Assembly (NCBI GenBank): GCA_903928345.1
Contig: CAIYQO010000302.1
Span: 5,680 to 69,679 of the forward strand
DNA from: an uncultured bacterium
GTDB taxonomy: Bacteria > Armatimonadota > Hebobacteria > CAIYQO01
Direction of reading: 5' to 3'
DNA: 64,000 nucleotides
Shown here: one piece after another, positions 5,097 through 55,220 of the stretch
How the letters are laid out: each line of letters begins with the position of its first letter
Position numbering within the stretch: the stretch's first letter is position 1
Made by a program: the position numbers and the translations under genes
Notes under the pieces: generated by a model
What the model was told of the DNA's origin: nothing
Database searches by the model: none
What the model saw: the letters and a program-made list of their open reading frames with translations, nothing else

Positions 5097-5148
5097 GAGA
5101 CGGCCTGTGCGTGTGAACAAATCGCACGTACAGGCCGTCTCTTTTTTT
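5097..5148 (+). terminator. Rho-independent terminator, likely bidirectional, nested inside an 18-nt outer inverted repeat.
   Basis: 12-bp perfect stem gagacggcctgt/acaggccgtctc followed by T7. Outer IR gcgagcgtacccgcgagc at 5051-5068 and 5171-5188. Confidence 0.65.
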
Positions 5149-5205
5149 ACCCACACCCGCCTCGCCCGTAGCTCGCGGGTACGCTCGCGCTCCCAAGTCA
5201 GGCAG

Positions 5206-19612: not shown

Positions 19613-19891
19613 TTACTGGGCGGCGTTGAGTCGCTTCATCAACCGGGACTTGCGGCGGGCGGCGGTATTCTTGTGAATGATCCCCTTGGTCGCGGCGCTG
19701 TCGATTTCCTTCAACGCCAGCTTCACCTTGTCGACACTGGCAGCAGCATCGGTGGTGATCGCGGCGAGCGCCTTGGTGCGCAGCGTCTTGAGCTTGGACT
19801 TGACGGACTGATTCCGCAGACGGTTGCGCTCATGGATCAGCAGATCTTTTTTTGCCGATTTGGTATTGGGCACAGCAGGCTCCTTTGCCAT
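19613..19891 (-). CDS. rpsT: 30S ribosomal protein S20.
   Basis: MAKE...KSAKK...GIIHKNTAARRKSRL matches S20. Confidence 0.8.
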   Translation of the reverse strand: MAKEPAVPNTKSAKKDLLIHERNRLRNQSVKSKLKTLRTKALAAITTDAAASVDKVKLALKEIDSAATKGIIHKNTAARRKSRLMKRLNAAQ

Positions 19892-19918
19892 AGCTCGCGC
19901 TTGCGAGCGGTCGAAAAA

Positions 19919-20317
19919 CTAGCGCTTGGAGAACTGGAAGCCGCGGCGGGCGCGCTTGCGACCGTACTTCTTCCGCTCTTTGACGCGGGCGTCGCGCGTC
20001 AGCATCCCGTATTGACGCAGCAGCTTGCGCAGCGCCTCATCGAATTGCACCAGCGCGCGGGCGATGCCGTGGCGCATCGCGCCGGCTTGCCCGGAGTTGC
20101 CGCCGCCCAGACACTTGACGGTCACGTCGAAGCGGTCGGTTAGATTGGAAATTGCCAACGGGGACATCGCCATGATCTCCAGCGTCGGACGGCACATGTA
20201 CCCGTGCAGGGTCGTGCCATTGACGACGACCTTGCCGGTGCCTTCCCGCAGCCACACCTTAGCGGTGGCGTTTTTTCGATGCCCGGTCCCGTAGAAAAAT
20301 TCGTCAACCAAGGTCAT
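19919..20317 (-). CDS. rpsI: 30S ribosomal protein S9.
   Basis: YYGTGHRKNATAKVWL...KYGRKRARRGFQFSKR is the S9 C-terminus. Confidence 0.9.
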   Translation of the reverse strand: MTLVDEFFYGTGHRKNATAKVWLREGTGKVVVNGTTLHGYMCRPTLEIMAMSPLAISNLTDRFDVTVKCLGGGNSGQAGAMRHGIARALVQFDEALRKLLRQYGMLTRDARVKERKKYGRKRARRGFQFSKR

Positions 20318-20335
20318 GCCTCCTCATCGACAGGG

Positions 20336-20776
20336 CTACTGCCGAAACGACTCCGTGATATTCACCGGCTGTTGCGCCGCATGGGGATGCGTGTCGCCTG
20401 CGTAAATCTTCAGCTTCAGCGCCATCTTGCGGCCGAGTGCGTTCTTCGGCAGCATCCCTTTGATGACGCGGCGCACCGCCTCAGCGGCGTTCTTTTCCAT
20501 TGCGCGGCCCAGGGGTTCGGCCTTCTGCCCGCCGGGATACCGGCTGTGCGTTAAGCGGATCTTCGTTGCCATTTTGTCCGCGGTCACGCGCACTTTGTGG
20601 GCATTGACGATGATGACAAAATCACCGGTGTCCACGTTGGGCGTAAAGATCGGTTTATGCTTGCCGCGCAGCAGGGACGCCACCCGCGCCGACATCCGGC
20701 CCAGCACCAGGTCCGTCGCGTCGACCAGCAGCCAACTGTGGTCAACTTCCTGCGATTTCGCCAGAAAACTCTTCAT
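20336..20776 (-). CDS. rplM: 50S ribosomal protein L13.
   Basis: HSWLLVDATDLVLGRMSARVASLLRGKHKP is the L13 N-terminus. Confidence 0.9.
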   Translation of the reverse strand: MKSFLAKSQEVDHSWLLVDATDLVLGRMSARVASLLRGKHKPIFTPNVDTGDFVIIVNAHKVRVTADKMATKIRLTHSRYPGGQKAEPLGRAMEKNAAEAVRRVIKGMLPKNALGRKMALKLKIYAGDTHPHAAQQPVNITESFRQ

Positions 20777-21557
20777 CGGTTAACTCTCCACCATACACCC
20801 CCAGCGGGGGCGCGTCTCCGATCGGGGGATACCCGATTCGCATCAAACACAGGCCGTGGGGCGGCGCCCCGTAGCCGGCGAGATCGCGGTTGCGCGAGGC
20901 CAGCACTTCCGCCGGCCAGCTCTCGGGCCGCACTCCGCGGCCCACCTGCACCAGGGTGCCCACCAGCAGGCGGACCATGCGGCGCAGAAAGGCGTCTGCC
21001 TGGATATCCAGCAGCACCAGCCCCGGGCGTTGCCGCACCACGAGCCGTTGCAGCGTACGCACCGATCCTCCGAGCGCTTTGCCACCGTGGCAGAAGGCTG
21101 CGAAGTCATGTCGGCCGATCAGCGCCGTAGCGGCCCGTGCCATCGCTTCCGCATCCAACGCCGGCACCTGCCAGCAGAAGCGGCCCCGCAGTGGATCGGA
21201 CCGACGTGTCGGCTGCAGCACGTAGACGTAGCGACGATACCCGGCGGACAGGCGCGCGTGGAACCAGGGTTCCCGCTCTACTGCCGCGCGCAGCCGGATA
21301 CTCGGCGGCAATTCGCGGTTCGTCACCCACGGTACCCGTTCCACCGGAATGGTGCTCGTGGTGCGCAGGCTGATCACCTGTCCCAGCGCATGCACCCCGG
21401 CATCCGTGCGTCCGGCACCGGTCACTGTCGTCGGCTGTCGCAGCACCGTCGTCAGGGCAGTTTCCAACGCGGCCTGGAGCGACGGGTAACGCGACTGTCG
21501 CTGAAATCCCGCCCACTCCGTGCCATCGTACGCGACGGTCACGGCGAGGGTGCGCAT
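20742..21557 (-). CDS. truA: tRNA pseudouridine(38-40) synthase TruA.
   Basis: VAYDGTEWAGFQRQ...GAGRTDAGVHALGQV is the TruA catalytic Asp motif. Its 3' end overlaps the rplM start by ~34 nt. Bacillus-like truA-rplM-rpsI arrangement. Confidence 0.85.
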   Translation of the reverse strand: MRTLAVTVAYDGTEWAGFQRQSRYPSLQAALETALTTVLRQPTTVTGAGRTDAGVHALGQVISLRTTSTIPVERVPWVTNRELPPSIRLRAAVEREPWFHARLSAGYRRYVYVLQPTRRSDPLRGRFCWQVPALDAEAMARAATALIGRHDFAAFCHGGKALGGSVRTLQRLVVRQRPGLVLLDIQADAFLRRMVRLLVGTLVQVGRGVRPESWPAEVLASRNRDLAGYGAPPHGLCLMRIGYPPIGDAPPLGVYGGELTDEEFSGEIAGS

Positions 21558-21560
21558 CGA

Positions 21561-22058
21561 CTAATCCACGAACTCGAGCTTGACCATGGCCGAGGCGTCG
21601 CCGCGGCGCGCACCTCGCGCGGTCAGCTCACCCTTGGTATTCACGTGCGGCTCGCCACCGAGGCGTGTCAGGCGCGTATACCCACCGTTACGCTCTTTGA
21701 ACTGCGGCCCAAGTTCCTCGAACAGGATGCGGATCAGACGCTCGCCACTCGGCGCCATATCCTTGCCCTTCAGGTGTCCCTTATAATCGGGCGCGTCGCC
21801 GTGCACATTCTCGAACTTCTCGCGCGTGGTGATGCGTCGGCCCATCGGGATCCAGCGGCGCGCCAGGCGCCGATTCGTCAGCGTGTCCTCGCGTCCCAGG
21901 GTGATAATGCGCTCGACGATGGGCCGGGCTTCTTTCGCGCGGGTTTCGGTAGTGATGATGCTGCGGTGATCTAGCATCCCCGCCACCAGCGATTTAAGAA
22001 TCGCCAAGCGTTGATCGGTCGGTCGACCGAGTTTTTTCATGCCGGAACGGTGTCTCAT
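21561..22058 (-). CDS. rplQ: 50S ribosomal protein L17.
   Basis: MRHRSGMKKLGRPTDQRLAILKSL matches L17. Confidence 0.9.
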   Translation of the reverse strand: MRHRSGMKKLGRPTDQRLAILKSLVAGMLDHRSIITTETRAKEARPIVERIITLGREDTLTNRRLARRWIPMGRRITTREKFENVHGDAPDYKGHLKGKDMAPSGERLIRILFEELGPQFKERNGGYTRLTRLGGEPHVNTKGELTARGARRGDASAMVKLEFVD

Positions 22059-22114
22059 GATCTATCCCTTTTCCTTCGGCATCCGGGGAGCGGACGCCGC
22101 ACGGTCACCGAGCG

Positions 22115-23131
22115 TCAGTCTTCCTCGGTGTCGCTGCCCGGGACGTATTCCCCGGACTCGCGCAAACTCAGGCTCATCTCCTGCAGCTTGTCCTTCACTT
22201 CGTTGAGGGACTTGCGACCGAAGTTCTTGATCGCCATCAACTCCGATTCGGAGTGCGCGATGAGTTCGCCCACGGTGGAGATGCCCACCTTGCGCAGGCA
22301 GTTGAAGGTGCGCACGGAGAAGTCCAGATCCTTGATCTTCTTCTCCGCCCCCGGCAGCGACGCGGTGATGTCGGTAAAGAGACCGTGCTCTTCCTGCTCA
22401 CCGAAGTCGAAGAAGAGGATCAGATAGCGGTCGAGAATCTTCGCGCTGTCGCTGATCGCCTCCTGCGGACTGATCGTGCCGTTGGTGCGTACTTCCAGCG
22501 TCAGCCGATCGAGGTCGGTGGCGCTGCCCACGCGCGTGGGATCCACGCGGTACGCGACGTGGCGCACCGGCGTGTAGATGGAGTCCATCGGAATGGTGCC
22601 GATGGGCATACGAGTGCGGTCCTGGTGTTCAGCGGCAACGAAGCCGGTGCCGAACTGCACCTCCATTTTTATATCCAGCGTGGCGCTCTCGCCCGACAGG
22701 GAGGCGATGTGGTGGCCGGGATTGGCGATTTCGATGTCGGGCGGCAATTCGATGTCCGCCGCGGTCACTTCGCCGGGGCCTACACGGTAGAGCGTTACTT
22801 CTCGCGGCTCTTCGGTCCCACGGTCATCGCTGCCCGGGAGGATGCGGAAGGCGATCTCCTTCATATTGAGCAGCAGGTCGGTGGTGTCTTCCACCACGCC
22901 GGGGATCGTGCCAAATTCGTGCAATACGCCTTCGATGCGGACAAATTTGAGCGCGGCTCCGGGGATAGAGGAGAGCAACACGCGGCGCAAGGCGGCGCCC
23001 AGCGTGGTCCCATAGCCCCGTTCCAACGGCTCGACCACAAACTTCCCGTACGACGGGTCGCTGCGGTCGTCGATCCGCTCGATTTTCGGCGTCTGATTCG
23101 TCATAACAAACATAATTCGCTCCTGCGACAA
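22115..23131 (-). CDS. rpoA: DNA-directed RNA polymerase subunit alpha.
   Basis: N-terminal dimerisation domain plus C-terminal CTD (VRTFNCLRKVGISTVGELI). Exact start ambiguous (MSQERIMFVMTN). Confidence 0.9.
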   Translation of the reverse strand: MSQERIMFVMTNQTPKIERIDDRSDPSYGKFVVEPLERGYGTTLGAALRRVLLSSIPGAALKFVRIEGVLHEFGTIPGVVEDTTDLLLNMKEIAFRILPGSDDRGTEEPREVTLYRVGPGEVTAADIELPPDIEIANPGHHIASLSGESATLDIKMEVQFGTGFVAAEHQDRTRMPIGTIPMDSIYTPVRHVAYRVDPTRVGSATDLDRLTLEVRTNGTISPQEAISDSAKILDRYLILFFDFGEQEEHGLFTDITASLPGAEKKIKDLDFSVRTFNCLRKVGISTVGELIAHSESELMAIKNFGRKSLNEVKDKLQEMSLSLRESGEYVPGSDTEED

Positions 23132-30770: not shown

Positions 30771-31448
30771 CTAGCCTTTGCGCAGCGGCAATCCGAGCTT
30801 GCCGAGCAGTGCGCGCGCTTCTTCGTCGCTCGCGGCGCTGGTGACGATGGTGACGTCCATCCCGCGCACGCGGTCGATCGTATCGATATTGATCTCCGGG
30901 AAGATCGTCTGCTCCTTCACACCGAAGGAGTAGTTCCCCCGACCGTCCAGCGATTTCGCCGGCAGTCCCTGGAAGTCGCGAATACGCGGCAGCGCCACGG
31001 AAAAGAGGCGATCCAGGAATTCCCACATGCGCGGCCCGCGCAGCGTCACCTTGGCGCCGATCGGGTTGCCTTCGCGCAATTTGAAGGCGGCGATTGACTT
31101 CGTCGCTTTGGTCACCAGCGGCTTCTGCCCGGTGATCATCGCCATTTCGCGCACGGCATGGTCTAGCGTTTTGGCATCCTGAAGCGCCTCGCCCACGCCC
31201 ATGTTGACCACTACCTTCAGCACCCGCGGCACCTGCATCACGTTGGCATAGTTGAACTGTGCCTGCAGGGCAGGGGCCACTTCCTCGGCATAGCGCGCCT
31301 TCAGGCGCGGGGCCGGCCCCTTCTCCTCGACGCCGCCGAATTGCTGCGCGCCGGCTGCCGCATCCTTGGATTTGCCCGTGACGGCCTTGCCGCCCTTGGC
31401 CCCCTTGGCCGGCGGGACAGCACTCTTTTTCGTCTCTTGCTTGGCCAC
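30771..31448 (-). CDS. rplE: 50S ribosomal protein L5 with a Lys/Ala/Gly-rich N-terminal extension (~45 aa).
   Basis: Core [32 protein letters not shown] start at 31448 preceded by a perfect AAGGAG SD. The listed ATG at 31520 would overlap rplX by 31 nt. Confidence 0.8.
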
Positions 31449-31488
31449 AACTCGCTCCTTGTATCTGCTCCGCGGCGTGCCGCGTGTC

Positions 31489-32013
31489 TTAGCGGATGGC
31501 GCTGCGCGCCTCGGCGTCATGCGTGGTCGGGCGCTCGATGATCTCGCCGCACTGCTTGCACACGCGTTCGCGAATCGGTTGCGTCCGCGTGCCGGTTACG
31601 GTGTTCAACGTGCGCGTACCGACCAGCTTGCTACCCACGCGCGTCGGCTTGTCGCAATGCGGACAGACCAGCATCACACGGGACACCGGCAGCGCTGCTT
31701 CCATTTGGATGCGCCCGCCTTGCTGAATCTGCGCAGCCCCGCTACTGGCACTCGGCTTTTTATGCTTCGTCACCATGTTCTTGCCGCGCACGACCACCTT
31801 GCCATCTTTCGGGAGCACGCGGATAACTTCGCCGCGCACGCCCTTCACCTTGTTCGCCTCCGCGATCTGATCGGCCATCGGCATGGCCTCGCGCTTGCTC
31901 TGGAAGGTGGCCTCGTCGGCCTTGTCCATGTCCAGTGCTTCGCGTAGACGCGAGATGCCAGCGGCATCGCGTCCGGCGCGGATGTAGACGATATCACCCT
32001 TAACAATTTTCAT
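31489..32013 (-). CDS. rplX: 50S ribosomal protein L24 with C-terminal zinc ribbon and a ~35-aa internal insertion.
   Basis: MKIVKGD...; CPHC...CKQC as in Thermus L24. Insertion [41 protein letters not shown] inside the KOW region. Confidence 0.85.
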
Positions 32014-32073
32014 AGCACCCACCAACACAGGGTGCCACGCACAGGGGCACTGTACGGTGGCACACGATCCGTA

Positions 32074-32102
32074 ATTTTAGAGAGGTCGGACGCGCCTGTC
32101 AA
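32074..32102 (-). promoter_or_regulatory. Sigma-70-like promoter (TTGACA-17-TAAAAT) upstream of rplX, inside the 124-nt rplN-rplX gap.
   Basis: Minus strand reads TTGACAggcgcgtccgacctctcTAAAATtacgg. The -35 is complementary to 32097-32102 and the -10 to 32074-32079. Confidence 0.4.
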
Positions 32103-32137
32103 GGCCTTGCGGCCTGTTTTTGCGTACCGAGCAAGCG

Positions 32138-32506
32138 TCAGAGTACCTCCGGGGCAAGACTGACGATCTTCATGAAGTCGCGGTCGCGCAATTCGCGCGC
32201 CACCGGGCCGAAGATGCGCGTCCCGCGCGGGTTCTTCTGCTCGTTGATAAGGACGGCGGCGTTCTCGTCGAAACGGATATACGAGCCGTCCGGCCGGCGC
32301 AGCGGCTTCTTGGTGCGCACGACGACCGCCTTGGCTACGTCGCCCTTTTTCACCGCCGAGCCCGGCGTGACTGTCTTGACCGCCACCACGATGACATCGC
32401 CGATATTGGCGGTACTGCCGGTGGACCCTTTGAGGACGCGGATGCATTCCACCACGCGCGCTCCGGAATTATCGGCTACGTTGAGCCGTGTGCGTAACCC
32501 AATCAT
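32138..32506 (-). CDS. rplN: 50S ribosomal protein L14.
   Basis: [17 protein letters not shown] matches L14. Confidence 0.9.
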
Positions 32507-32515
32507 CTCTTCTCC

Positions 32516-34600
32516 TTACCGCTCTTCCTCGGCGCGCCGCTTCGCATCGGCGATAATCCCTTCGGCGGCGTGCGGCGGCACCTCTTCGTAGTGCGAGAGG
32601 CTCATGGTGAAGCTCCCGCGTCCCTGGGTGAGCGCGCGCAATTCGTTGGAATATTGGAACATCTCCGCCTGCGGTACCTGCGCCTTCACGGTGGACATGC
32701 CGCCGCCGGATGCCTCGGTCCCCTGCACGCGGCCTCGCTTGCTCGACATACCGCCGATGATGTCGCCGATGTATTCGTCCGGTACAGTGACCTCGACGTT
32801 CACGTACGGCTCCAGCAGCACGGGCATGGCCCGCGTGATGGCATCCTGAAAGCCTAGACGCGCCGCGCTCTGGAAGGCTATATCCTTCGAGTCCACCGGG
32901 TGGTACTGGCCATCGTAGAGCGTGACGCGCACGTCGACGACGGGGTAGCCGGCCAGCGGGCCGTGCTTGATCGTCTCGCGGATGCCCTTTTCGACCGACG
33001 GGATGTACTGCCGGGGCACGACGCCGCCGACGACGGCGTCGACAAATTCGAAGCCGACGCCACGCTCCAGCGGTTCGAGCTTGATCTTCACGTCGCCGAA
33101 CTGCCCGGAGCCGCCGGTCTGCTTCTTATGCCGCCCGTGGCCGTCCGCCGCGGCGCGCACCGTTTCGCGGTAGGCGACCACCGGGTTGCCGGTGACCGTT
33201 TCGACGTTGAACTTGCGCTTCAGGCGATCCTGAATCACCCCCAGGTGCAGCTCGCCCATGCAGGCGATGATCGCTTCGTGGGTCTCCGGATCCTGCTCGA
33301 AGTGCAGGGTGGGATCCTCTTCGACAAAACGATGGAGCCCCTGGGCCATCTTATCCTCTTCCCCCTTGTTCGTCGGGGCGATAGAGAAGTTGAGCATCGG
33401 GATCGGATAAGCAGGCGGGATGACGATGACGCGCTCGGTCGCGGTGGCGAGGGTATCCGCGGTCGCGGAGGCGTGCAACTTGGCGACGAGGACAATGTCC
33501 CCCGCCTTGGCCGTCTCAATCGGCTCCTGCTGCTTGCCGATGAAGGCAAACAGGTTGCCGACGCGCTCCCTGGCTTCCTTATTCGAATTATACGCTTCTG
33601 AGCCCGAAGGCAAAGTGCCGGCGTAGACACGCAAAAATGTGATGCGCCCCGCGAAGGGGTCGGCCGTAGTTTTGAACGCGTAGGCGACGAGTGCCCCCGC
33701 GCTGTTGGACTTCACCGTGACTTCCGCATCGCCCTTCGTCGCCGCGACCGGCGCCACCTGGTTGGGGGCGGGGGTGCTGGAGACGAGCAGGTCGAGCAGG
33801 GCGGTGGTACCGAAATTCTTTACCGCGGCACCGAGTAGTACCGGGAAAATGCGCCCGGCACGCACCCCTTCCTGCAAGCCGAGGATGATCTCCTCGTCGG
33901 AGAGATCGCCTTCTTCCAGATACTTCAGGGTCAGGTCGTCATTCGCCTCGGCGGCGGCTTCCACCACCGCTTCGCGCAGCGACGCGGCCTTGCTCTGCAA
34001 TTCGGCAGGGATGGCCTCTACTTTCGGCGCGGCCAGGTCTTCGGTTTCTAGGAGCGCGTGCATGGAGATCAGATCCACCATACCGTGGAAACCGGTTTGC
34101 TCGCCGATGGGGAGCTGCAACGCGACGACGCCGGAGCCGAAGCGCGCCTTGAGGGCGGCCAGCGTGTTGTCGAAGTTGGCGTGCTCTTTATCCATCTTAT
34201 TGACATAGAGTACACGCGCCAGCCCGCGGGCATCGGCCATGCGCCAGTAGCGTTCCGTCTGCACCTCGATGCCGTTCACCGCATCGATGACCATCAGCGC
34301 GGTATCCGCCACGTGCAGGGCGCCGACGACCTCACCGACGAAGTCGGCAAAGCCCGGCGTATCCAGCACGTTTAGTTTCACGCCATTATACTGCACGGGC
34401 AGCAGCGATGTACTGATGGAGATCTGACGCTGAATCTCGTCCACGTCGATGTCGGACAAGGTGGTGCCGGCGTCAACGCGCCCCATGCGGCCGATTACGC
34501 CCGTCTGGTACATCATCGCTTCTGCCAGCGTGGTCTTACCCGCGCCGCCGTGGCCAATGAGCGCCACGTTGCGCAGTGATTCGGTTTCATAGGTCTTCAT
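32516..34600 (-). CDS. Elongation factor G paralog (EF-G2 / EF-G-like translational GTPase) embedded between rpsQ and rplN.
   Basis: 694 aa. G1 [10 protein letters not shown]3 DTPG, G4 NKMD. Domain IV loop YHPVDS. Domain V present. Only ~35-40% identical by eye to the canonical fusA at 40798-42866. Intergenic gaps to the flanking ribosomal genes are 24 nt and 9 nt. Confidence 0.8.
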
Positions 34601-34624
34601 GCGTCTCTCCTCGCCGGGACTATC

Positions 34625-34888
34625 CTACTTCGCGCGTTCGAGAATCGCTTCTATGCGCCAGCACTTGTCCTTGCTCAGCGGGCGGGTCTCCATGATGCGT
34701 ACTTTGTCGCCGACCTTGCAGTCGTTCGCTTCATCGTGCGCTTTGAACTTCGCGGTCCGCTTGAGAACGCGTTTGTACAGCGGGTGTTGCACCAGGTCTT
34801 TGACCTGCACCACTACTGTCTTATCCATCTTATCGCTGATTACAATCCCTTCGCGCATTTTGCGCGCGTTGCGGGGTGTCGTCTCCAT
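34625..34888 (-). CDS. rpsQ: 30S ribosomal protein S17.
   Basis: [18 protein letters not shown] matches S17. The start may be the internal MREG at 34858. Confidence 0.85.
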
Positions 34889-35631: not shown

Positions 35632-36672
35632 CTAGGCGTCGGCCTGCTCGTCCGCCGGGCTTTCCGCTACCGGGGTCTCGTCGAGAGTCGCGTCCGGGGT
35701 GGTCAGCGGGGCCGTGCCCGCTGCTTCCGGGGCAATCTCTTCCACACCTTCGATGACCGCGCTCACCGCGTCGATCGCTTCCGCGACCGACTCTTCACGC
35801 GGCACGCGGCGCCAGCCCTTCTTCTTTTCCGCCGCGGCCTGCGCGGCGGTCTGGGCGGCGACCGGCGCGGCGGCTTGCGTCGGACCGGCGGTCGGGAGCG
35901 GCACTTCGCGGCGCATCGGGCGCGCCACGGGCAACTCGGAAGCGCCGGGGAGGATTTCCCCGCGGTAAATCCAGACCTTCACGCCGATGTTCCCATACTG
36001 TGTGCGTGCTTCGCTCAGTCCATAATCGATGTCGGCGCGCAGTGTATGCAGCGGAACTTTGCCGTCTTTATCCGAATACGAGCGTGCGATTTCCGCGCCA
36101 CCCAGGCGACCGGACACGATCACCTTGATCCCCTTGCCGCCGCGCTGCATGGTGCGCGCAATGGCCAGGCGAATGGCGCGCTTAAAGGAGACGCGACGCT
36201 CGATCTGATTGGCCACGGAATCCGCCACCAGCAGGGCATCGAGTTCCGGTTGCTTGATCTCGAGCACATTGAGCTGAATTTTGCGCGGGGTGAGCTTTTC
36301 GAGTTCGGCACGCAGCTCGTCGATGCCGCGTCCGCCGCGCCCGATGATCAACCCCGGACGCGCGGTATGCATCGTCACCTTGATGATATTGGCCATGCGT
36401 TCGATTTCGATCTGCGAGACCCCGGCGTCCATGCCGCGACCGCCACGCCCACCGGAGTTACGTCCGCCGCCACCGCCACCACGTCCGCCGGACCCACCGC
36501 GACGTGCGCCGCCGGCACCGGCCAGCAGCACGGGTAAGCGCGCGCGGAGGTATTTGCGGATCGTGTGGTCCTCGATCACAAAAGCCTTATACTCTTTGTC
36601 CGCGAACCAGCGGCTTTGCCAGTCGCGAATGATGCCGAGACGGAATCCGTAAGGATGAACCTTCTGCCCCAT
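35632..36672 (-). CDS. rpsC: 30S ribosomal protein S3 with an internal Gly/Arg-rich insertion and a long acidic/Ala-rich C-terminal tail.
   Basis: [20 protein letters not shown]...KH domain. Insertion [39 protein letters not shown] before VSQIEIER. 346 aa versus ~230 typical. Confidence 0.9.
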
Positions 36673-38716: not shown

Positions 38717-39387
38717 GCCACACCCCCTTGGTTGGCCATCCAGCGCGCGATCCCCAGCGGCCGTTGTTTCAGTGCGGTCAGCGCGTCGAGGCTCGTGCGG
38801 GTAAAGAGCAGGCAGTCCGCCAACAGCGTTTCGTAGGTGCCCACCGACTCGGGGGTGGTCACCGCCACTTGCGGCAGGTTGCGGAAGGAGAGCACCACCT
38901 CGGCGGTGAGCGTCTCCGTCACCACCAGCACGCGCTTGTCCGCGATCTCCAGCGCCTGGAGCAGCGCCGCGGCGTCGCGGGTGCGGGGAGCGGTGAAGGT
39001 AAAGGCGTCGATGACGCGGATAGCGTTCTCCTGTGCTTTCGCGGAGAGCACGGAGAGGAGCGCCTTGCGCCGCATCTTCTTATTCAACGACTGGCGGTAA
39101 TCGCGGGGATGCGGCCCAAAGACCACGCCGCCGCCCTTCCAATGGGGGGCGCTCTTCATCCCCTGGCGAGCACGACCGGTGCCCTTCTGGCGGAAGAGTT
39201 TGCGCGTGGTATGATGGACTTCGCCGCGGGTTTTGGTGTCCGCGGTCCCCTGGCGCTGATTGGCCAGCGTCGCCCGCACGGCCTGATGGACCAGCGCTTC
39301 ATGGGGCTCGATGCCGAACACGTCGGCCGCCAGCTCGATTTCACCCGCCGGCTGCCCGGCGGCCGTATACACAGGTATGGTGGCCAT
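38713..39387 (-). CDS. rplD: 50S ribosomal protein L4.
   Basis: [31 protein letters not shown] matches L4. Confidence 0.9.
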
Positions 39388-40172
39388 CAGTCTTTCTCCA
39401 ATGCGGTAAAGGTCACGTACTTGCCCTTGCCGCGCTCGATGACGGGACGATCAGGCAGGGTCACCACGACGAGGCTGCCGTTGGCCCCGGGCACGGCGCC
39501 CTTGAGGACAAGCATGTTCTTTTCGGCGTCGGCGCGCACCACGGTCAGGCCCTTCACGGTTACCTGTTCGTTGCCCATGTGGCCCGGGCGGCGGGCGCCG
39601 GGGAAGACGCGGGCGGCATCGGTGGCGCCGCCGGAAGCCGGCTTGCGGTGGAACATGGAACCGTGGGAAGCCTTGCCACCCTTGAAGCCGTAGCGTTTCA
39701 TGACGCCGGCGAAGCCGCGGCCTTTGGAGGTGCCCGCCACGTTGACCTTCTCACCGGCGGTGAAGAGGTCGGCGCGCAGAATGGCGCCTTCGGCGAAATC
39801 GTCCGGGACGGCGACGGTGAATTCCTGCAGGTAGCGCAGCGGTGGCACATTGTGCTTGGTGAAGTGCCCGAGGGCGGCCAGGGTAATGCGGCGCTGCTTG
39901 CCACGGGGATCCGTGTCAATGGAGGTGCGCGTATTCGTTTTGCGGCGCTGGTCGTGTTCGCGGCGCAGCTCTTCGGCATGCTTCACGTCGCGCTCTTCGA
40001 ACTCGAGATACCCGAGCTGGACGGCTTCGTAGCCGTCGCGCTGTTTCGTGCGCCGCTGTACCACATAGCAGGGTCCGACTTCCAACACCGTCACCGGCAC
40101 GGCCTTGCCGTCCGGATCGAAGAGCTGCGTCATGCCCACCTTGCGTCCCATGATCATCTTGCGAACTGCCAT
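39387..40172 (-). CDS. rplC: 50S ribosomal protein L3 with a ~60-aa internal insertion.
   Basis: MAVRKMIMGRKVGMTQLF...; FKGGKASHGSMFHRKPASGG. Start at 40172 (MAVRK) rather than 40238. Confidence 0.85.
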   Translation of the reverse strand: MAVRKMIMGRKVGMTQLFDPDGKAVPVTVLEVGPCYVVQRRTKQRDGYEAVQLGYLEFEERDVKHAEELRREHDQRRKTNTRTSIDTDPRGKQRRITLAALGHFTKHNVPPLRYLQEFTVAVPDDFAEGAILRADLFTAGEKVNVAGTSKGRGFAGVMKRYGFKGGKASHGSMFHRKPASGGATDAARVFPGARRPGHMGNEQVTVKGLTVVRADAEKNMLVLKGAVPGANGSLVVVTLPDRPVIERGKGKYVTFTALEKD

Positions 40173-40271
40173 GGTTGTGTCCTTATCCTTTCCCGTCCCT
40201 AGCGGAGTCGTGAGCGGACTCATAGGGTTCCGGCGCAACCTGCGCCGGGTCCCGGCCCGCGGAGGGAGGGC

Positions 40272-40601
40272 CTAGATCTTGATCTCGATGTTTACACCGC
40301 CCGGCAGGTCGATACGCATGAGCGCGTCGATCGTCTTCGGATTCGGCTCCAGGATGTCGATGAGCCGCTTGTGCGTGCGCATCTCGAAGTGCTCCATCGA
40401 CTCTTTGTCGATGTGCGGCGAGCGGATCACGCAAAAGCGATTGATCTCGGTGGGCAGCGGCACGGGGCCCGCGATACGGGCGCCGGTGCGGCGGGCCGTC
40501 TCCACGATCTTCACGGCCGACTGGTCCAGAATCCGGTGGTCGAACGACTTCAGTCGGATACGAATTTTGTCGCTCGGCACGTTGCGAGTTTGTTTACGCA
40601 T
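40272..40601 (-). CDS. rpsJ: 30S ribosomal protein S10.
   Basis: [22 protein letters not shown] matches S10. Confidence 0.9.
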
Positions 40602-40688
40602 GGACGGTATGCCTCCGCTTGAAACAACGTATGCGCTGTTTCGGGCTTCTTGTCACGGTACATGTATCCCTGGGGACACACAGTTGAG

Positions 40689-40718
40689 AATTATAAGGTT
40701 TTCGCCCGCTCAAGTCAA
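40689..40718 (-). promoter_or_regulatory. Consensus sigma-70 promoter (TTGACT-17-TATAAT) for the S10 operon, with ~80-nt leader.
   Basis: Minus strand reads TTGACTtgagcgggcgaaaacctTATAATtctcaactg. Lies between the fusA stop and the rpsJ start. Confidence 0.5.
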
Positions 40719-40797
40719 CAGGTTGGACGAAAATAGTTGTCGGCGGTGAATCTGCTGTCGGCACATCCGGTTTCCGACTGCCGCACCGCGCCGTCCC

Positions 40798-42866
40798 TCA
40801 CTTGCCGATCACTTCTTCGGCAATGGATTTCGGCACTTCCTGGTAATGCGACGGCTCCATCGCATAGTTGGCGCGGCCTTGCGACAGCGAGCGCACGGTG
40901 GTGGCGTAGCCGAACATTTCGGAGAGCGGCACCTTGGAGCGAATGGCTTGCAGGCCGCCCGGTTGTGCTTCCAGGCCGTCGATATGCGCGCGACGCGAAC
41001 TCAGGTCGCCCATGATCTCGCCCATGTTCAATTCCGGGCAGATCACTTCCACGCGCATGATCGGTTCCAGCAGGATCGGCTTCGCTTTCCGCATCGCCTC
41101 TTTGAAGGCAATGGAGCCGGCGAACTTGAAGGACATCTCGTCGGAGTCCACTTCGTGGTAGGAACCGTCGTAGAGCGTCACCTGCAGGTCGATCACCGGG
41201 TAGCCGCCGAGGACGCCGTTGTCCAGCGCCTCGCGGATCCCCTGTTCCACCGCGGGGATGTACTCACGCGGCACTACGCCGCCCACCACGCCGTCGACGA
41301 AGCGGAAACCGGCGCCGGTCTCCAACGGGGCGATTTCGATGCGGACGTGGCCGTACTTGCCGCGGCCCCCCGTCTGGCGGATGTAGCGCCCTTCGGCCTT
41401 CGCGATCTGCGTGACCGTCTCACGGTACGCAACCTGCGGCCGACCGATGTTCGCTTCGACGCGCGATTCGCGGCGCAGCCGGTCCACGATGATCTCCAGG
41501 TGCAATTCGCCCATGCCGGAGATGATCGTCTGCCCGGTTTCGGCATCGGTGTATTGGCGGAAGGTGGGGTCCTCCGCGGCCAGGCGCACCAACCCGTTGG
41601 TCAACTTCTCCTCGTCCACCTTCGTCTTCGGCTCGATCGCCACCGAGATGACGGGTTCGGGGAAGTGGATCTTTTCCAGCAGCACCTGGTCCGCATGTCC
41701 GGTGAGGGTATCGCCCGTCGTGGTGGTGTCGAGACCGACGACGGCCACGATATCGCCGGCACGCACTTCCTCCACCTCTTCGCGGTGGTTGGCGTGCATG
41801 CGCAGGACACGGCCCAGGCGCTCGCGCTTGCCCTTGCTGACGTTCATCGCGCGGTGCCCTTGGCGACGGTGCCGCTGTAGCAGCGCAGGTAGGTGATGCG
41901 GCCCACGTAGGGGTCGGACATAATCTTAAACGCGAGGGCGCTGAAGGGGGCGTCGTCACTCGGCTCGCGCCAGAGTTCTTCGCCCGTGTGCGGGTCTTCC
42001 CCGCGTACGGCGCCGACGTCCAGCGGCGAGGGGAGGTATTCCACCACGGCGTCCATCAGCGGCTGCACGCCCTTGTTGCGGAAGGAGGCGCCGCAGAGCA
42101 CGGGGACGATCTCGATGCGCAGCGTGCCCGCACGGATTCCCGCGCGGATCTCCTCTTCGCTAAACGTCCCGCCCTCGAGATATTTGTGCATCAGCGTGTC
42201 GCTGCCGTCGGCGGCCGCCTCGATGACGTGCTCGCGATGCTCCAGGGCCAGGGCCATCAGGTCGGCGGGGATCTCCGTTTCGATCATCTGTTGACCCAAC
42301 TCGTCGGGGTACAGCAGCGCGACCATGCGCACCAGGTCAATGACGCCCTTGAACTCGCCCTCTTCGCCGATGGGGAGCTGCAGCGGCACCGGGCGGATGC
42401 CCAGCCGCTCGCGCATGGATTCCAGCACGCGGAAGAAGCTGGCGCCGGTGCGATCCATCTTATTGATGAAGGCGATGCGCGGCACCTTATAGCGATTGGC
42501 CTGCCGCCACACCGTCTCCGATTGCGGCTGCACGCCGCCCACGGCGCAGAACAGGCCGATGACGCCGTCGAGCACGCGCATGGAGCGTTCCACTTCCATG
42601 GTGAAGTCGACGTGTCCCGGCGTGTCGATGATGGTAATCAGGTGGTCGCGCCAGTGGCAGGACGTGGCCGCGGAGGTGATGGTGATGCCGCGTTCCTGCT
42701 CCTGCGGCATCCAGTCCATGGTGGCGGCGCCATCATGCACCTCACCCATGCGATGCAGCCGTCCGGTGTAGAACAGCATGCGCTCGGTGGTCGTGGTCTT
42801 GCCGGCGTCGATGTGCGCGGCGATTCCGATATTACGTGTACGTTCCAGTGGGTATTCTCGTGCCAT
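40798..42866 (-). CDS. fusA: Elongation factor G (canonical fusA), split into two ORFs by an apparent 1-nt indel near 41845.
   Basis: N-terminal half: [27 protein letters not shown]-terminal half: YHEVDS, domain V. The two ORFs abut at 41844/41847. Inserting one nucleotide in gcgcgATGaac restores ...[18 protein letters not shown]..., which is co-linear with Thermus EF-G (TLTSGSYVYNTTKGRKER). Confidence 0.85.
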
Positions 42867-43007
42867 AGTATTCTCAAGCTCCGCGTCCTGCGTGCGCGCC
42901 CTGGGCGCGTCCTGGATCGGCCCGGTTCCCCGAGCAGGCATCCGGGACAGACGAAGTCCCATCCCTATGAACGGGATGGGACTCGTACATGTACCGGAAA
43001 GGGTGTC

Positions 43008-43530: not shown

Positions 43531-43980
43531 TTACTTGCGGCCCTTCGCCGCGGCCTGGCCGGGCTTCGGGCGCTTGGCGCCGTATTTCGAACGCCCCTGC
43601 TTACGATTCGCCACGCCGGCGGTATCGAGCACGCCACGGACGATGTGGTAGCGGATCCCCGGCAGGTCCTTCACGCGGCCGCCGCGAATCATCACGACGG
43701 AGTGTTCCTGCAGGTTGTGCCCCTCGCCCGGAATGTAGGCGGTGACTTCGATGCGGTTGGTGAGGCGGACGCGCGCCACTTTGCGCAGCGCCGAGTTCGG
43801 CTTCTTCGGGGTCACGGTCCAGACACGCGTGCAGACGCCGCGCTTCAGCGGGCCCTCGGTCATGACGTACTTGCGCTTATTGCTGTTAAAGTTCCAGCTC
43901 AACGCCCAACGCACGGTCGGGGTGATCTTCACGTGCGCCCGCTGACGCCCCTTACGAACTAATTGATTGATGGTCGGCAC
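43531..43980 (-). CDS. rpsL: 30S ribosomal protein S12 (GTG start).
   Basis: [13 protein letters not shown]...[16 protein letters not shown] matches S12. GGAGAG SD before the GTG at 43980. Confidence 0.9.
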
Positions 43981-44063
43981 GCAGGCCTCTCCTTCATCGG
44001 AAAATCGCGACGGTGGGCCGGAAAATTCTCGGCACACGCAACGCCGCTCCGCGCGTCACGCCG

Positions 44064-44093
44064 AGCGGTTCACACAGCGGGTGATTGTAACAA
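44064..44093 (-). promoter_or_regulatory. Sigma-70-like promoter (TTGACA-17-TACAAT) for rpsL-rpsG-fusA.
   Basis: Minus strand reads TTGACAaagcctgcgtcgctttgTTACAATcacc. Leader ~75 nt. Confidence 0.45.
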
Positions 44094-44327
44094 AGCGACG
44101 CAGGCTTTGTCAACAGATACGCGTGGTTTTTTTCCCTACCGCGTAACTTAGCGGGCCATGCGCTCCGTCGCACGGGCGATTCAGGTCCGCCGCGCGGTTT
44201 TCGCGGAGGGCTTCCGCCCCCGAAAACCTCGGTCGTCGCGCATCCCCATCTCTCATTTCCACCTCTCCCGCCTCTTCCCCTTCCCACCCTGCCCCTTATT
44301 CGCCTGTTAACACGGCGTTTGTTGGGG

Positions 44328-44340: not shown

Positions 44341-46563
44341 ATGTCCACCTTTTCGCTGCACCGCTCGGGTCGTCTACTGGGCGCCCTGGCGCTGCTGTTG
44401 TGCGTGGGCGCCTCAGGCGCGCACGCGACGGCGGCGAATTATAATATCCAGGCCACCGCGCAGCCCAAGCGTCTGACCTACGGCGACGACAACCGGGTGA
44501 CGTTGTCCGTGCACGTACTCGACGGGAAAACGGGGGGGCCGGCCGCCGACGGCACGTCGGTCTTCCTCTACACCACGCTGGGCACCCTCTCCGCCACCAC
44601 CTGCTATACGCAGCATGGGGAGATCAGCGCGCTGCTGGACAACACCACCGGCCCGGGCAAGGCGTACGTCACCGTGACCGTGGGGGATACGCAGGAGACA
44701 CTGCTGGTGGAATACCTGGGGGCCGGCGGCACGGCGTCGGGCACGCCGGTGGCGCAGACGCGCCCCAACTATCGGCTGGATGCCGGACAGGTGTATTTCA
44801 GCGCCGACAAACGCATCTTCGACTTGCGCGATACCGCCAAATTCACCGCCCTCGCCTTCACCATCACCGCGGGAGCGATCCAGTACGACGTGGCGAACAA
44901 CATCATCACCGCGCAGAGCGACGTGGTGGTCAACGCGGGGAGCAGCACGATCTCCGGCGAGAAGATGCGCCTGGACCTGGTGACGGGGCGCGGGGCGATC
45001 GTGGTCGTCAACCCGAGCATCGCCTACCTCTCCCTCACGCTGCCCGCGCTGAACGCCCACGAAGACGACGACGCGAAGAGCACCGACTTCACCCCGCTCA
45101 ATCCGTTGCCCACGCACACCTGGATCGTCTGCCACCCGGCGACGATGGCGCCATCCGCGCCGACGCCCCCCCCACCCTACCCCGGTTTTGCCACCTACAA
45201 GGTCGACAAACAGGTCAGCGGCGCACTGCCGGCGGGGATGCGGCCTCCCAAGCTGTGGAAGATGCCCGACTACCAGGTGATCGTCTATCCGAACGACATG
45301 GTGCTCTTCCACCAGCCGTCCTTTTACCTCAACGAATTCGACCATCCGCTTTTTTCCCTCCCCTACCACGTGCTCGACCTGCGCACGCCGCAGGGGGGCA
45401 CCTTCTTCAACAGCGACATCAGCCTGGCGTCGGACGCCGGGTTGAACATTGACTTTCCCTTCTACTACATCGCCACGGGCAACCGCACCGGGGCGCTGCA
45501 CTTCCGCCGCGTCACGCCCGGGTCGCAATACTTCCGTGGGGAATCCGGCTTCCAGTTGGATATGGAGGAAGAGTACCTGGTGGGCAACAAAACGGGGGAC
45601 GGCGGCGTCTACTTCGACGACCTGACCAACCCCACGCGCAGTATTTCGTGGGATCACAACCAGACGTTCGGATCGAATACGCACCTCAGCATGAACGCCT
45701 CCTATAGCCGCTACACCGCCGATACGCCCTACACGGCGCGCGGAGGGTTTGACTACTCACGCTCCTTCGGGCCCATCAACACCAACCTGCGCGCCACGGT
45801 GTCGCAGTTCCAGGAGCACCAGAACGGCGTCTACGAGCTGTACGTCACCCCCCCGGCGGTACCGTTGTTGCGCAACAAGATAACGCTGAGCTTCTCGCCT
45901 TATATCGGGTTCGAGCACGACAGCGACGTGAACGCCACCACCAACGAAAAGACGGCGACAAACAGCTTCTACCAGGGGTTGGGCACCTCGCTGGGGCTGC
46001 CTTCCTTCTCGAAGTGGGGCTGCGGCATCACGGAGAACGTGAGCAACGAACTCTCGCGTGACGGCGCCGGCACGGTGACCGACTACATCGACCTGGGCGC
46101 CAGCCTGCGGCGCGACCTGATCGACTCCTTCACCACCTCGTTGACCTACGGGTATAGCATTACGCGCACCTTCATCGCGGCGCCCGGCATCATGCCGGCG
46201 TCCACCCAGCCCAGCCAGCATCTCAGCGTGGACCTGACCGGCGGGCGGGCGCAGCGGTGGAGCTTCTACGCGTATTCGTCATATACCATCGAGTCAAAGT
46301 CGTTGTACAATTCCCTGACCTACACCTATTACCCGCCCTTCGACCGCGCGAAGGACGGCACCCCGCGTTTGTTTATCCGCTTCACCGCCCACCAGACCAC
46401 CGGCGATGTCAGCACCACCGACCAGCTCATCTCCGTCGGGCGCAATATCGGCCTGTACACCGTGGTGTGCCACTTCTCCCCCACCGGCAACACCGGCGTC
46501 TCCGGCATCGGCTCCGCCACCGGCCAGTCCTTCGCGGTGGAGCTGCAACGGCAGGGGTTCTGA
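44341..46563 (+). CDS. LptD/OstA-like outer-membrane LPS-assembly protein (signal peptide, OstA-like N-domain, beta-barrel, C-terminal Phe).
   Basis: Signal peptide LLGALALLLCVGASGAHA. OstA-like beta-jellyroll block (YFSADKRIFDLRDTA...ITAQSDVVVNAGSSTISGEKM). Y/G/S/T-rich alternating C-terminal 400 aa ending ...LQRQGF. Confidence 0.6.
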   Translation: MSTFSLHRSGRLLGALALLLCVGASGAHATAANYNIQATAQPKRLTYGDDNRVTLSVHVLDGKTGGPAADGTSVFLYTTLGTLSATTCYTQHGEISALLDNTTGPGKAYVTVTVGDTQETLLVEYLGAGGTASGTPVAQTRPNYRLDAGQVYFSADKRIFDLRDTAKFTALAFTITAGAIQYDVANNIITAQSDVVVNAGSSTISGEKMRLDLVTGRGAIVVVNPSIAYLSLTLPALNAHEDDDAKSTDFTPLNPLPTHTWIVCHPATMAPSAPTPPPPYPGFATYKVDKQVSGALPAGMRPPKLWKMPDYQVIVYPNDMVLFHQPSFYLNEFDHPLFSLPYHVLDLRTPQGGTFFNSDISLASDAGLNIDFPFYYIATGNRTGALHFRRVTPGSQYFRGESGFQLDMEEEYLVGNKTGDGGVYFDDLTNPTRSISWDHNQTFGSNTHLSMNASYSRYTADTPYTARGGFDYSRSFGPINTNLRATVSQFQEHQNGVYELYVTPPAVPLLRNKITLSFSPYIGFEHDSDVNATTNEKTATNSFYQGLGTSLGLPSFSKWGCGITENVSNELSRDGAGTVTDYIDLGASLRRDLIDSFTTSLTYGYSITRTFIAAPGIMPASTQPSQHLSVDLTGGRAQRWSFYAYSSYTIESKSLYNSLTYTYYPPFDRAKDGTPRLFIRFTAHQTTGDVSTTDQLISVGRNIGLYTVVCHFSPTGNTGVSGIGSATGQSFAVELQRQGF

Positions 46564-55191: not shown

Positions 55192-55220
55192 TTGACATTT
55201 GCGTGATGCTTTGTTATCTT
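55192..55220 (+). promoter_or_regulatory. Sigma-70-like promoter (TTGACA-17-TATCTT) for the first H-X9-DG gene.
   Basis: atTTGACAtttgcgtgatgctttgtTATCTTtg, about 50 nt upstream of the ATG at 55273 (RBS AAGGAGA). Confidence 0.45.

Follow-up and report, generated by a model that had tools for sequence, protein, structure and literature searches.

An EF-G paralog between rpsQ and rplN

We analyzed a 64,000-nucleotide (nt) stretch of DNA (the window) from contig CAIYQO010000302.1 of an uncultured Armatimonadota bacterium, in which a paralog of elongation factor G (EF-G), here termed EFG2, is encoded inside the ribosomal-protein supercluster. The window has a G+C content of ~64%, and the supercluster occupies its minus strand from rpsL (~44037) to rpsT (19613). 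The EFG2 open reading frame (ORF; 32516..34600, minus strand) is intact, specifies 694 aa, and was classed as an EFG II (EF-G2-type) paralog from its translation, Pfam and NCBIfam matches, diagnostic residues, and ratio of nonsynonymous to synonymous substitution rates (dN/dS). It is preceded by rpsQ (34625..34888, minus strand), the gene for S17 and the last of the classical S10 operon, recognized from its translation and from tblastn and Pfam labels in relatives. It is followed by rplN (32138..32506, minus strand), identified by translation, which encodes L14 and in the usual order opens the spc operon; here it lies downstream of EFG2, and its product is 88-93% identical to L14 of the core clade of relatives. 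In E. coli, the classical boundary between the S10 and spc operons falls between rpsQ and rplN. The rpsQ-EFG2 spacer (34601..34624, minus strand) comprises 24 nt with a Shine-Dalgarno (SD) sequence, GAGGAG, and no promoter-like motif, and the EFG2-rplN spacer (32507..32515, minus strand) comprises 9 nt, with an SD sequence (AGGAG) that overlaps the EFG2 stop codon. The ORF, Pfam, and NCBIfam analyses thus confirm the original prediction, made from the sequence alone, of a 694-aa EF-G2-type ORF between rpsQ and rplN with gaps of 24 and 9 nt.

EFG2 has the hallmarks of the EFG II subfamily

Pfam resolved EFG2 into the five domains of EF-G, namely GTP_EFTU (residues 8-277), EF-G_D2, EFG_III, EFG_IV, and EFG_C, and the protein carries the motifs GHGGAGKTT (16-24), DTPG (80-83), NKMD (134-137), and YHPVDS (566-571). 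It matched the NCBIfam subfamily model NF009381 ('elongation factor G'; PRK12740.1-5) over its full length with 898.8 bits, above the cut-off of 583. It stayed below the cut-off of the equivalog model NF009377 ('elongation factor G-like protein EF-G2'; 656.8 versus 890 bits), and is accordingly classed as not an equivalog of that EF-G2 lineage, and below that of NF058620, the Bacteroidota EF-G2 model (584.2 versus 1000 bits). The models for tetracycline ribosomal protection proteins (Tet(M)/(O)/(Q) and Otr(A); cut-offs of 775-1425) also failed to accept it, the highest score being 328 versus 775 bits for NF012153. EFG2 does exceed the cut-off of the canonical EF-G model TIGR00484 (701 versus 659.4 bits), which is why its relatives are labeled plain 'elongation factor G' by the source databases; because such proteins are so named, EF-G paralogy is invisible in annotations.

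To assign the subfamily, EFG2 was aligned to Thermus thermophilus EF-G1 (sequence from the PDB alignment), and the EFG II residue definitions of Margus et al. 2011 (PMC3150367) were applied. All six type I residues are present (Gly19, Leu28, Ser64, Thr316, Gly360, and Lys379 in T. thermophilus EF-G1 numbering), whereas the fusA products of the window and its relatives read A, T, T, I, A, and G at the same positions, with the exception of Met28 in one relative (L090). Six of the seven type II residues (224 D, 258 V, 272 L, 498 K, 499 K, 543 E, and 633 G) are likewise found, position 224 being Asn instead of Asp; residues 498 and 499 form a Lys-Lys pair in loop I of domain IV. The G2 motif, RQISI at 58-62, is relaxed from RGITI and fits the xxxSx pattern to which G2 is relaxed in EFG II, with RxxSI in Clostridia and Chloroflexi groups (Margus et al. 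2011, PMC3150367). In the P-loop (GHGGAGKT versus AHIDAGKT), Gly19 replaces the monovalent-cation-binding Asp, the substitution described for EFGII (Atkinson 2015, PMC4342817). The catalytic His of switch II is replaced by Phe84, with Tyr or Phe in other members of the clade; across our sample this position is Y, F, E, or D in every EFG II protein and H in every EFG I protein. EFG2 therefore departs from canonical EFG I in its DTPGF without the catalytic His, in RQISI in place of RGITI, and in its site at rpsQ/rplN instead of after rpsL-rpsG. The GTP-binding motifs (P-loop, NKMD, and G5) are retained, as is the tip of domain IV (the GQ loop and His567), and the HKKQ loop is extra-basic, as is typical of EFG II.

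A neighbor-joining (NJ) tree, a distance method from which spdEFG and T. thermophilus EF-G2 references were left out, separated EFG I from EFG II in 200/200 bootstraps and placed the window protein in EFG II. The phylogeny of both EF-G copies proposed in the original prediction was in this respect carried through for the EFG I | EFG II split. In raw score EFG2 matched T. thermophilus EF-G1 (610 bits) better than the EF-G2 structures 1WDT (446), 9K0Z (512), and 7UVP (462). Because EF-G1 outscores the EF-G2 structures and two EF-G2 equivalog cut-offs were missed, EFG2 is placed among the EFG II branches that have diverged less, close to the Clostridia and Chloroflexi sub-subgroups. Its overall identity to the fusA product of the window is 43% and peaks at 57% in domain IV.

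Each of the EFG II features of Margus et al. 2011 was thus found, from the five-domain architecture with a G′ insertion, type I residues, G2, and type II residues to tree position and presence beside a str-operon EFG I. Judged by its sequence, EFG2 is a typical member of the EFG II subfamily, and its location is the unusual part. The diagnostic residues and the 200/200 split bear out the label of EF-G2-type paralog; the description of the protein as divergent calls for qualification, given how typical of EFG II it is.

Conservation of the S17-EFG2-L14 gene order

The order S17-EFG2-L14 recurs in at least 14 loci from independent samples and assemblers (NCBI, ENA, and JGI assemblies). EFG2 identity to the window protein at these loci is 87% in L089, 76% in L081 and L091, 75% in L092, and 71% in L082; at more distant loci it falls to 63% (L083/84), 59% (L085/86/93 and L090), and ~49-51% (L087/88, L171, and L172). 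L171 lies on a 4.9-Mb Armatimonadota contig (CP070648.1), and L172 bears the NCBI label 'candidate division KD3-62 bacterium DG_56'. In L171 (1..3000), divergent HD-domain genes interrupt the S10 operon between rplP and rpmC, yet L29-S17-EFG2-L14-L24 are still contiguous. Every close relative recovered is a metagenome assembly. EFG2 is thus fixed at the S10|spc seam (rpsQ/rplN) in a deep Armatimonadota clade plus DG_56.

The synteny check suggested in the original prediction is answered by this recurrence, as are two scenarios that it had named as refuting: relatives with the same insertion as their single EF-G copy are excluded by relatives that carry both EFG2 and fusA, and a chimeric assembly junction is excluded, because the arrangement recurs in many independent assemblies.

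Among the matches listed, 146 EFG II-like loci of other lineages (at most 49% identity) have no S17, L14, S7, or S12 in the flanks fetched; the EFG II-like genes sampled from other lineages lack ribosomal-protein neighbors, whereas EFG2 lies inside the S10-spc cluster. The contig scans behind this comparison used broad back-translated patterns, and their matches, mostly EFG II of other phyla at no more than 49% identity, serve as negative controls and not as a phylum-wide census. S12-S7 neighbors were seen only at canonical fusA loci. The operon-embedded EFG2 copies fall into two subclades, each with 200/200 support, which are sisters in the point-estimate NJ tree. Because the insertion site is identical, a single ancient insertion would be the parsimonious reading, although the sequence tree alone is no proof of it.

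The spacers around EFG2 in relatives range from −4 to ~110 nt (−1 to ~84 nt for rpsQ-EFG2 and −4 to ~110 nt for EFG2-rplN). Nearly all of these EFG2-flanking spacers carry a purine-rich, SD-like stretch upstream of the start; in the rpsQ-EFG2 spacers, an SD sequence is found in all and a TTGACA motif in none. In the L087/88 lineage, EFG2 overlaps both neighboring genes.

Base composition and selection

Measured against the relative with 87% identity (L089), EFG2 has a dN/dS of 0.10, within the span of 0.04-0.15 found for ribosomal proteins, secY, adk, and map. Its G+C contents at the three codon positions (GC1/GC2/GC3 = 0.67/0.42/0.82) match those of the neighboring genes. Across three genomes EFG2 identity is 76/71/59% versus 84/83/76% for fusA; EFG2 therefore diverges faster than fusA, at a rate similar to that of L4, L6, and SecY. 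These values indicate that EFG2 is a native, old, and constrained gene under purifying selection. Recent horizontal transfer was considered and is ruled out by the base composition together with the conserved synteny.

Promoter-like motifs and putative transcription units

A scan of the 19-kb cluster for sigma-70-type sites returned three with 11/12 consensus matches, all on the coding strand and all intergenic. They are TTGACA-18-TACAAT upstream of rpsL, before the str unit (44084..44113, minus strand); TTGACT-17-TATAAT upstream of rpsJ (40690..40718, minus strand); and TTGACA-17-TAAAAT in the gap between rplN and rplX (32102..32074, minus strand). The rpsL site is conserved in L081, L082, and L090, and the rpsJ site takes the form TTGACG-N17-TAT[AT]AT in the same three loci. 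With weaker matches included, the whole region held four sites against a mean of 3.6 in shuffled sequence, so there is no excess. The strict pattern TTGACA-N16-18-TAnnnT occurs four times on both strands of the 64-kb window, each time in an intergenic position upstream of genes. In relatives the strict pattern was found only before rpsL (where covered) and in the rplN-rplX gap, with the TTGACG variant before rpsJ. A plain sigma-70 consensus scan thus seems unusually informative in this lineage. Further near-consensus sites in the window, in addition to the three in the cluster, lie at 55192 and 56545 (both plus strand).

The rplN-rplX gap measures 124 nt if rplX (L24; 31489..32013, minus strand) starts at the conserved ATG at 32013; the gene was identified from its translation, with a conserved ATGAAAATTGT start common to relatives. 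The TTGACA-17-TAAAAT motif that the original prediction had pointed out at 32074-32102 in this gap is present, and TTGACA-N16-18-TAnnnT is conserved in position in nine of nine core-clade lineages. Because its position is kept while the spacers between the hexamers have diverged, there is good comparative evidence that the motif is a real promoter. No promoter-like motif was found in the EFG2-flanking spacers of any lineage examined.

From motifs before rpsL, before rpsJ, and after rplN, together with none beside EFG2, we infer three transcription units: rpsL-rpsG-fusA; rpsJ...rpsQ-EFG2-rplN, which would begin with rpsJ (S10; 40272..40601, minus strand; assigned by translation and synteny); and rplX with the genes that follow it. 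EFG2 occupies the S10|spc seam, with the operon boundary apparently shifted one gene downstream, to after rplN. The claim of co-transcription with ribosomal proteins in the original prediction is plausible in view of the gaps, the SD sequences, and the motif-free flanks, a basis of motif and gap anatomy. A gap of 1 nt separates rplN from rplX in the L087/88 lineage, where the whole stretch is therefore probably one operon.

The canonical fusA gene and its frameshift

The canonical EF-G gene of the window (fusA, EFG I; 40798..42866, minus strand) follows rpsL-rpsG, and the frameshift reported for it in the original prediction was verified as one missing T. The 1-nt deletion lies between 41849 and 41848 (CTG to C-G), where the window reads GCG-CG-ATG, that is, GCG-CTG-ATG minus T. 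It splits the gene into ORF pieces at 41844..42962 and 40798..41847, whose products match positions 1-338 and 341-687 of TIGR00484. Over the same span the window is one base shorter than L081 and L082. The closest fusA homologs among the matches listed (92% and 86% identity, full length) read KGTALMNVSK at this point, and all homologs listed at 74% identity or more are full length (661-717 aa, one being a partial record). The three loci of the same synteny have intact genes (L081, 707 aa; L082, 717 aa; L090, 691 aa), to which both window halves are 82-86% (L081 and L082) and 73-80% (L090) identical. Among ~65 genes in the window, fusA is the sole one seen to be disrupted.

The lesion was seen in this assembly alone and is more probably an error of assembly, or a change of very recent date, than evidence of replacement. 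Since the fusA genes of relatives are intact, EFG2 as a lineage-wide replacement of EF-G is unsupported. A programmed −1 frameshift and a functional split fusA were both considered and rejected: GCG-CGA-TGA offers no slippery heptamer, the break falls inside the domain II barrel, and the codon in relatives is an ordinary CTG.

Proposed role of EFG2 and its alternatives

The best overall explanation, which we hold to be probable, is that an EFG II protein has become fixed at the S10|spc seam, is made with the ribosomal proteins, and is accessory to canonical EF-G. EFG2 would be transcribed within an extended S10 operon (rpsJ...rpsQ-EFG2-rplN), as its last gene but one, translated from its own SD site, and produced in step with ribosomal proteins and not only under stress. 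By homology, it should bind GTP and the ribosomal factor-binding site like EF-G and insert its domain IV into the decoding center. With Phe84 in place of the His, Gly19 in place of the Asp, and Ser61 in place of the RGITI Thr, EFG2 most probably supports slow translocation with little GTP hydrolysis, or else stabilizes a post-translocation state, and would act alongside canonical EF-G without replacing it. EFG2 is, in short, likely to be a translocase-like factor of accessory rank, poor in GTPase activity and expressed together with ribosomes. Related proteins offer precedents for such activity: T. thermophilus EF-G2 is active in poly(Phe) synthesis, if slightly slower (PMC3150367), EFGII can substitute for EF-G, although much more slowly (Atkinson 2015, PMC4342817), and a Bacteroides EF-G paralog is reported to translocate without GTP hydrolysis, as cited in PMC12775393.

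Several observations weigh against this explanation. The proposed function is inferred by homology, while the characterized EFG II proteins differ among themselves; M. smegmatis EF-G2 has no ribosome-dependent GTPase activity and traps post-translocated ribosomes (bioRxiv 10.64898/2026.05.25.727771). Co-transcription, although plausible, is argued from motif and gap anatomy. The dS of EFG2 (0.73) resembles that of secY, adk, and map, whereas ribosomal proteins range from 0.41 to 0.55, a hint that codon usage is under weaker selection, and a codon-usage log-likelihood (ribosomal-protein-like versus other genes) separates the classes weakly and assigns neither EFG2 nor fusA clearly to one of them. 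The union of the two operon-embedded subclades was recovered in 51-56 of 200 NJ bootstraps, weak support from the tree for a single origin, and EFG II is found at other sites in two Armatimonadota-labeled genomes (L004, and L173, where it precedes dnaG-rpoD). The fusA deletion does not lie in a homopolymer. An AlphaFold2 model of EFG2 from a 22-sequence alignment (mean predicted local distance difference test score of 67; ~30 in domain III) was too poor for use.

Among the alternatives, EFG2 could be a stress or slow-growth factor, either a Bacteroides-like starvation translocase or an M. smegmatis-like ribosome trap, that happens to lie in the cluster; its level would then depend on post-transcriptional control or on some undetected internal signal and would not follow that of the ribosomal proteins. 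The experimentally studied EF-G2 proteins are all tied to stress or starvation (PMC6989115, PMC10994844, bioRxiv 10.64898/2026.05.25.727771), the EFG2 dS exceeds that of the ribosomal proteins, and the 60-110-nt spacers around EFG2 in several relatives could hold regulatory RNA structure. Yet no lineage has a promoter-like motif beside EFG2, with three conserved promoters elsewhere in the cluster, its overlap with both neighbors in L087/88 points to translational coupling, and its position has been kept over deep divergence; we regard this alternative as unlikely. A bolder combination, in which EFG II is a constitutive part of the translation machinery here and no stress back-up, is co-produced with the S10 operon at an approximately ribosome-matched level, and serves as an energy-saving translocase or as a licensing factor at uL14 and the sarcin-ricin loop, and in which it may carry translocation alone in the window organism with fusA inactivated, seems to us more doubtful still. 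That EFG2 is or is becoming the principal translocase, as the original prediction had suggested should the frameshift be real, draws on the broken frame at 41848/41849, on a deletion outside any homopolymer, on reports of EFGII as a much slower substitute for EF-G (PMC4342817), and on the retained residues of the domain IV tip. It is contradicted by the intact fusA of every relative examined, including the 92% and 86% identical homologs and the three same-synteny loci, by two fusA halves that are conserved like other essential genes with no second lesion, and by the absence of disruption in the other genes of the window. In the genomes surveyed by Margus et al. (PMC3150367), moreover, a lone EF-G gene is always EFG I, and we consider a principal role highly improbable.

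A comparably low probability attaches to a role of EFG2 in ribosome biogenesis or quality control, whether it would 'test-drive' new 50S subunits or free uL14 of an anti-association factor, in the way that eukaryotic EFL1 evicts eIF6 from uL14. Such a role would explain why the gene is linked to those of ribosomal proteins, above all rplN; the adjacency to rplN persists where the S10 operon is broken (L171), and the conserved core-clade promoter after rplN would leave EFG2 and rplN in a shared unit. The rpsQ|rplN junction is, however, the natural seam of two operons, which may make the adjacency incidental; the conserved decoding-center residues of domain IV fit a role on translating ribosomes. 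An assembly chimera, or a recent horizontal insertion without lasting function, was weighed too, since the window is probably metagenome-assembled and the identical protein (P0001) is recorded only from one 113-kb contig (NCBI, ENA). With the same junctions in at least 14 loci of independent samples and assemblers, base composition and GC3 that match the neighbors, and the low dN/dS, we give it practically no credence.

Relation to known EF-G paralogs

With the EFG II subfamily, whose structural prototype is T. thermophilus EF-G2 (PDB 1WDT/2DY1), EFG2 shares five EF-G domains, Gly and Leu in G1, the xxxSx G2 motif, the domain II Thr, Gly, and Lys, the KK of domain IV loop I, and the P-loop Gly, as well as coexistence with a str-operon EFG I, although the rpsL-rpsG-fusA copy is frameshifted in the window and intact in L081, L082, and L090. 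Canonical EF-G (fusA, EFG I) is alike in architecture, whereas EFG2 is devoid of the catalytic His, RGITI, and AHIDAGKT; canonical EF-G follows rpsL-rpsG, whereas EFG2 sits elsewhere, with a separate EFG I in the same cluster.

Like EFG2, Bacteroides thetaiotaomicron EF-G2 (fusA2, BT2167) is a paralog of EF-G whose G domain is divergent. Its stand-alone gene responds to carbon limitation with >200-fold induction and shows anti-correlation with fusA (PMC6989115); the predicted regulation of EFG2, expression with the ribosomal proteins, would be the opposite. Mycobacterium smegmatis EF-G2 (PDB 9K0Z/9K10; match of 512 bits) is, like EFG2, a second EF-G gene beside EFG I, which is intact in M. smegmatis and frameshifted in the window, and both proteins lack residues for ribosome-stimulated GTP hydrolysis. 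In contrast to EFG2, whose domain IV loops look canonical, the mycobacterial protein is described as stress-specific and as a trap for post-translocated ribosomes, with displaced domain IV loops, and is encoded by a stand-alone gene.

Insertions in the S10-spc cluster are documented in Gammaproteobacteria and Bacilli (Brandis 2021, PMC8046335), and the EFG2 insertion at the S10|spc boundary fits that work in falling at a place that tolerates rearrangements. It differs from those insertions in that the inserted gene encodes a translation factor, is kept across a deep clade, and is accompanied by a boundary that seemingly lies after rplN. No report of EF-G2 in ribosomal-protein operons, or in Armatimonadota/Armatimonadetes, was found in the searchable literature; the subfamily is known, and it is the conserved S10-spc placement with the shifted operon boundary that was not found there.

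EFG II is widespread in bacteria, and the literature still treats its role as unknown (PMC4342817). The few examples studied so far are stand-alone and stress-linked, whereas the embedded clade, with EFG2 inside a cluster that ranks among the most conserved of bacterial operon groups, predicts an EFG2 that is made with ribosomes during growth, a concrete and testable handle on that role. The same prediction could show whether some slow-growing bacteria routinely use translocation that needs little GTP hydrolysis. The adjacency of S17 and L14 can evidently be broken stably, and the operon boundary can apparently shift to after rplN, both of which are relevant to phylogenomics and operon prediction that use this cluster.

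Other features of the ribosomal-protein cluster

A small GC hairpin, AGGCC-GCAA-GGCCT (32102..32115, minus strand; reported on the plus strand by the scan), lies just after rplN and abuts the −35 hexamer of the rplN-rplX motif. It is a possible 3′-end or weak terminator element, and similar hairpins occur at the equivalent place in L089 and L091. The ~60-nt rplX leader (32014..32073, minus strand) has conserved ends and a variable hairpin, as judged from an alignment and a consensus fold with some compensatory pairs. The gaps compared were those of the window (32014..32116, minus strand), L081, L082, L083, L085, L089, L090, L091, and L092; the 5′ TCGTGTG is conserved, as is GTGTTGGTGGGTGCTATG around the SD sequence and start codon. 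Rfam gave no match at gathering level in the window and none at E ≤ 1 across the cluster, the rplX leader included, and this element may be an undescribed ribosomal-protein leader. In L092 (~5110..5200), three tandem units of ~20 nt (CCCCTGCGGAGAGAAACGAC-like) separate the conserved leader from the rplX start codon.

The tuf gene is not found between fusA and rpsJ in the window (40602..40797), nor in L081, L082, or L090, where the usual order would be str-tuf-S10, and in the L088 lineage a fragment of EF-Tu domain 3 directly precedes rpsJ. Upstream of rpsL, rpoBC is absent, its place taken by a divergent 740-aa ORF without a Pfam match (44341..46563). At its other end the cluster goes on in the Bacilli-like order rpoA-rplQ-truA-rplM-rpsI-rpsT (19613..23131, minus strand). 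In L171, a 331-aa product without a Pfam match follows L24, where L5 would be expected. In L173 (3001..8082; Armatimonadota GCA_031081675.1), the EFG II homolog immediately precedes dnaG-rpoD, where the classical macromolecular-synthesis operon has rpsU; this arrangement is a further link of EFG II to housekeeping operons.

Several ribosomal proteins of the window are expanded. The 346-aa S3 (rpsC, 35632..36672, minus strand) contains an insert rich in Gly and Arg and a long, acidic tail rich in Ala and Pro; L24 (rplX) has ~174 aa, with an insert bearing a CxxC...CxxC pattern (zinc-ribbon-like); the L5 ORF (rplE, 30771..31520, minus strand) has a basic N-terminal extension, its start codon being uncertain; and L3 (rplC, 39387..40238, minus strand) has an internal insert. 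Lengths are similar in relatives. The rpsL gene (43531..44037, minus strand) encodes a uS12 with an insertion of ~16 aa after the N-terminal KGR motif, and S12 is also long in relatives (148-184 aa); uS12 contacts domain III of EF-G, and a link between the insertion and the extra EF-G is conceivable. Outside the cluster, ARAGORN called a 93-nt tRNA-Thr(GGT) at 62257..62349 (minus strand), inside a 1055-aa, high-GC ORF (60794..63961), and this call is probably a false positive.

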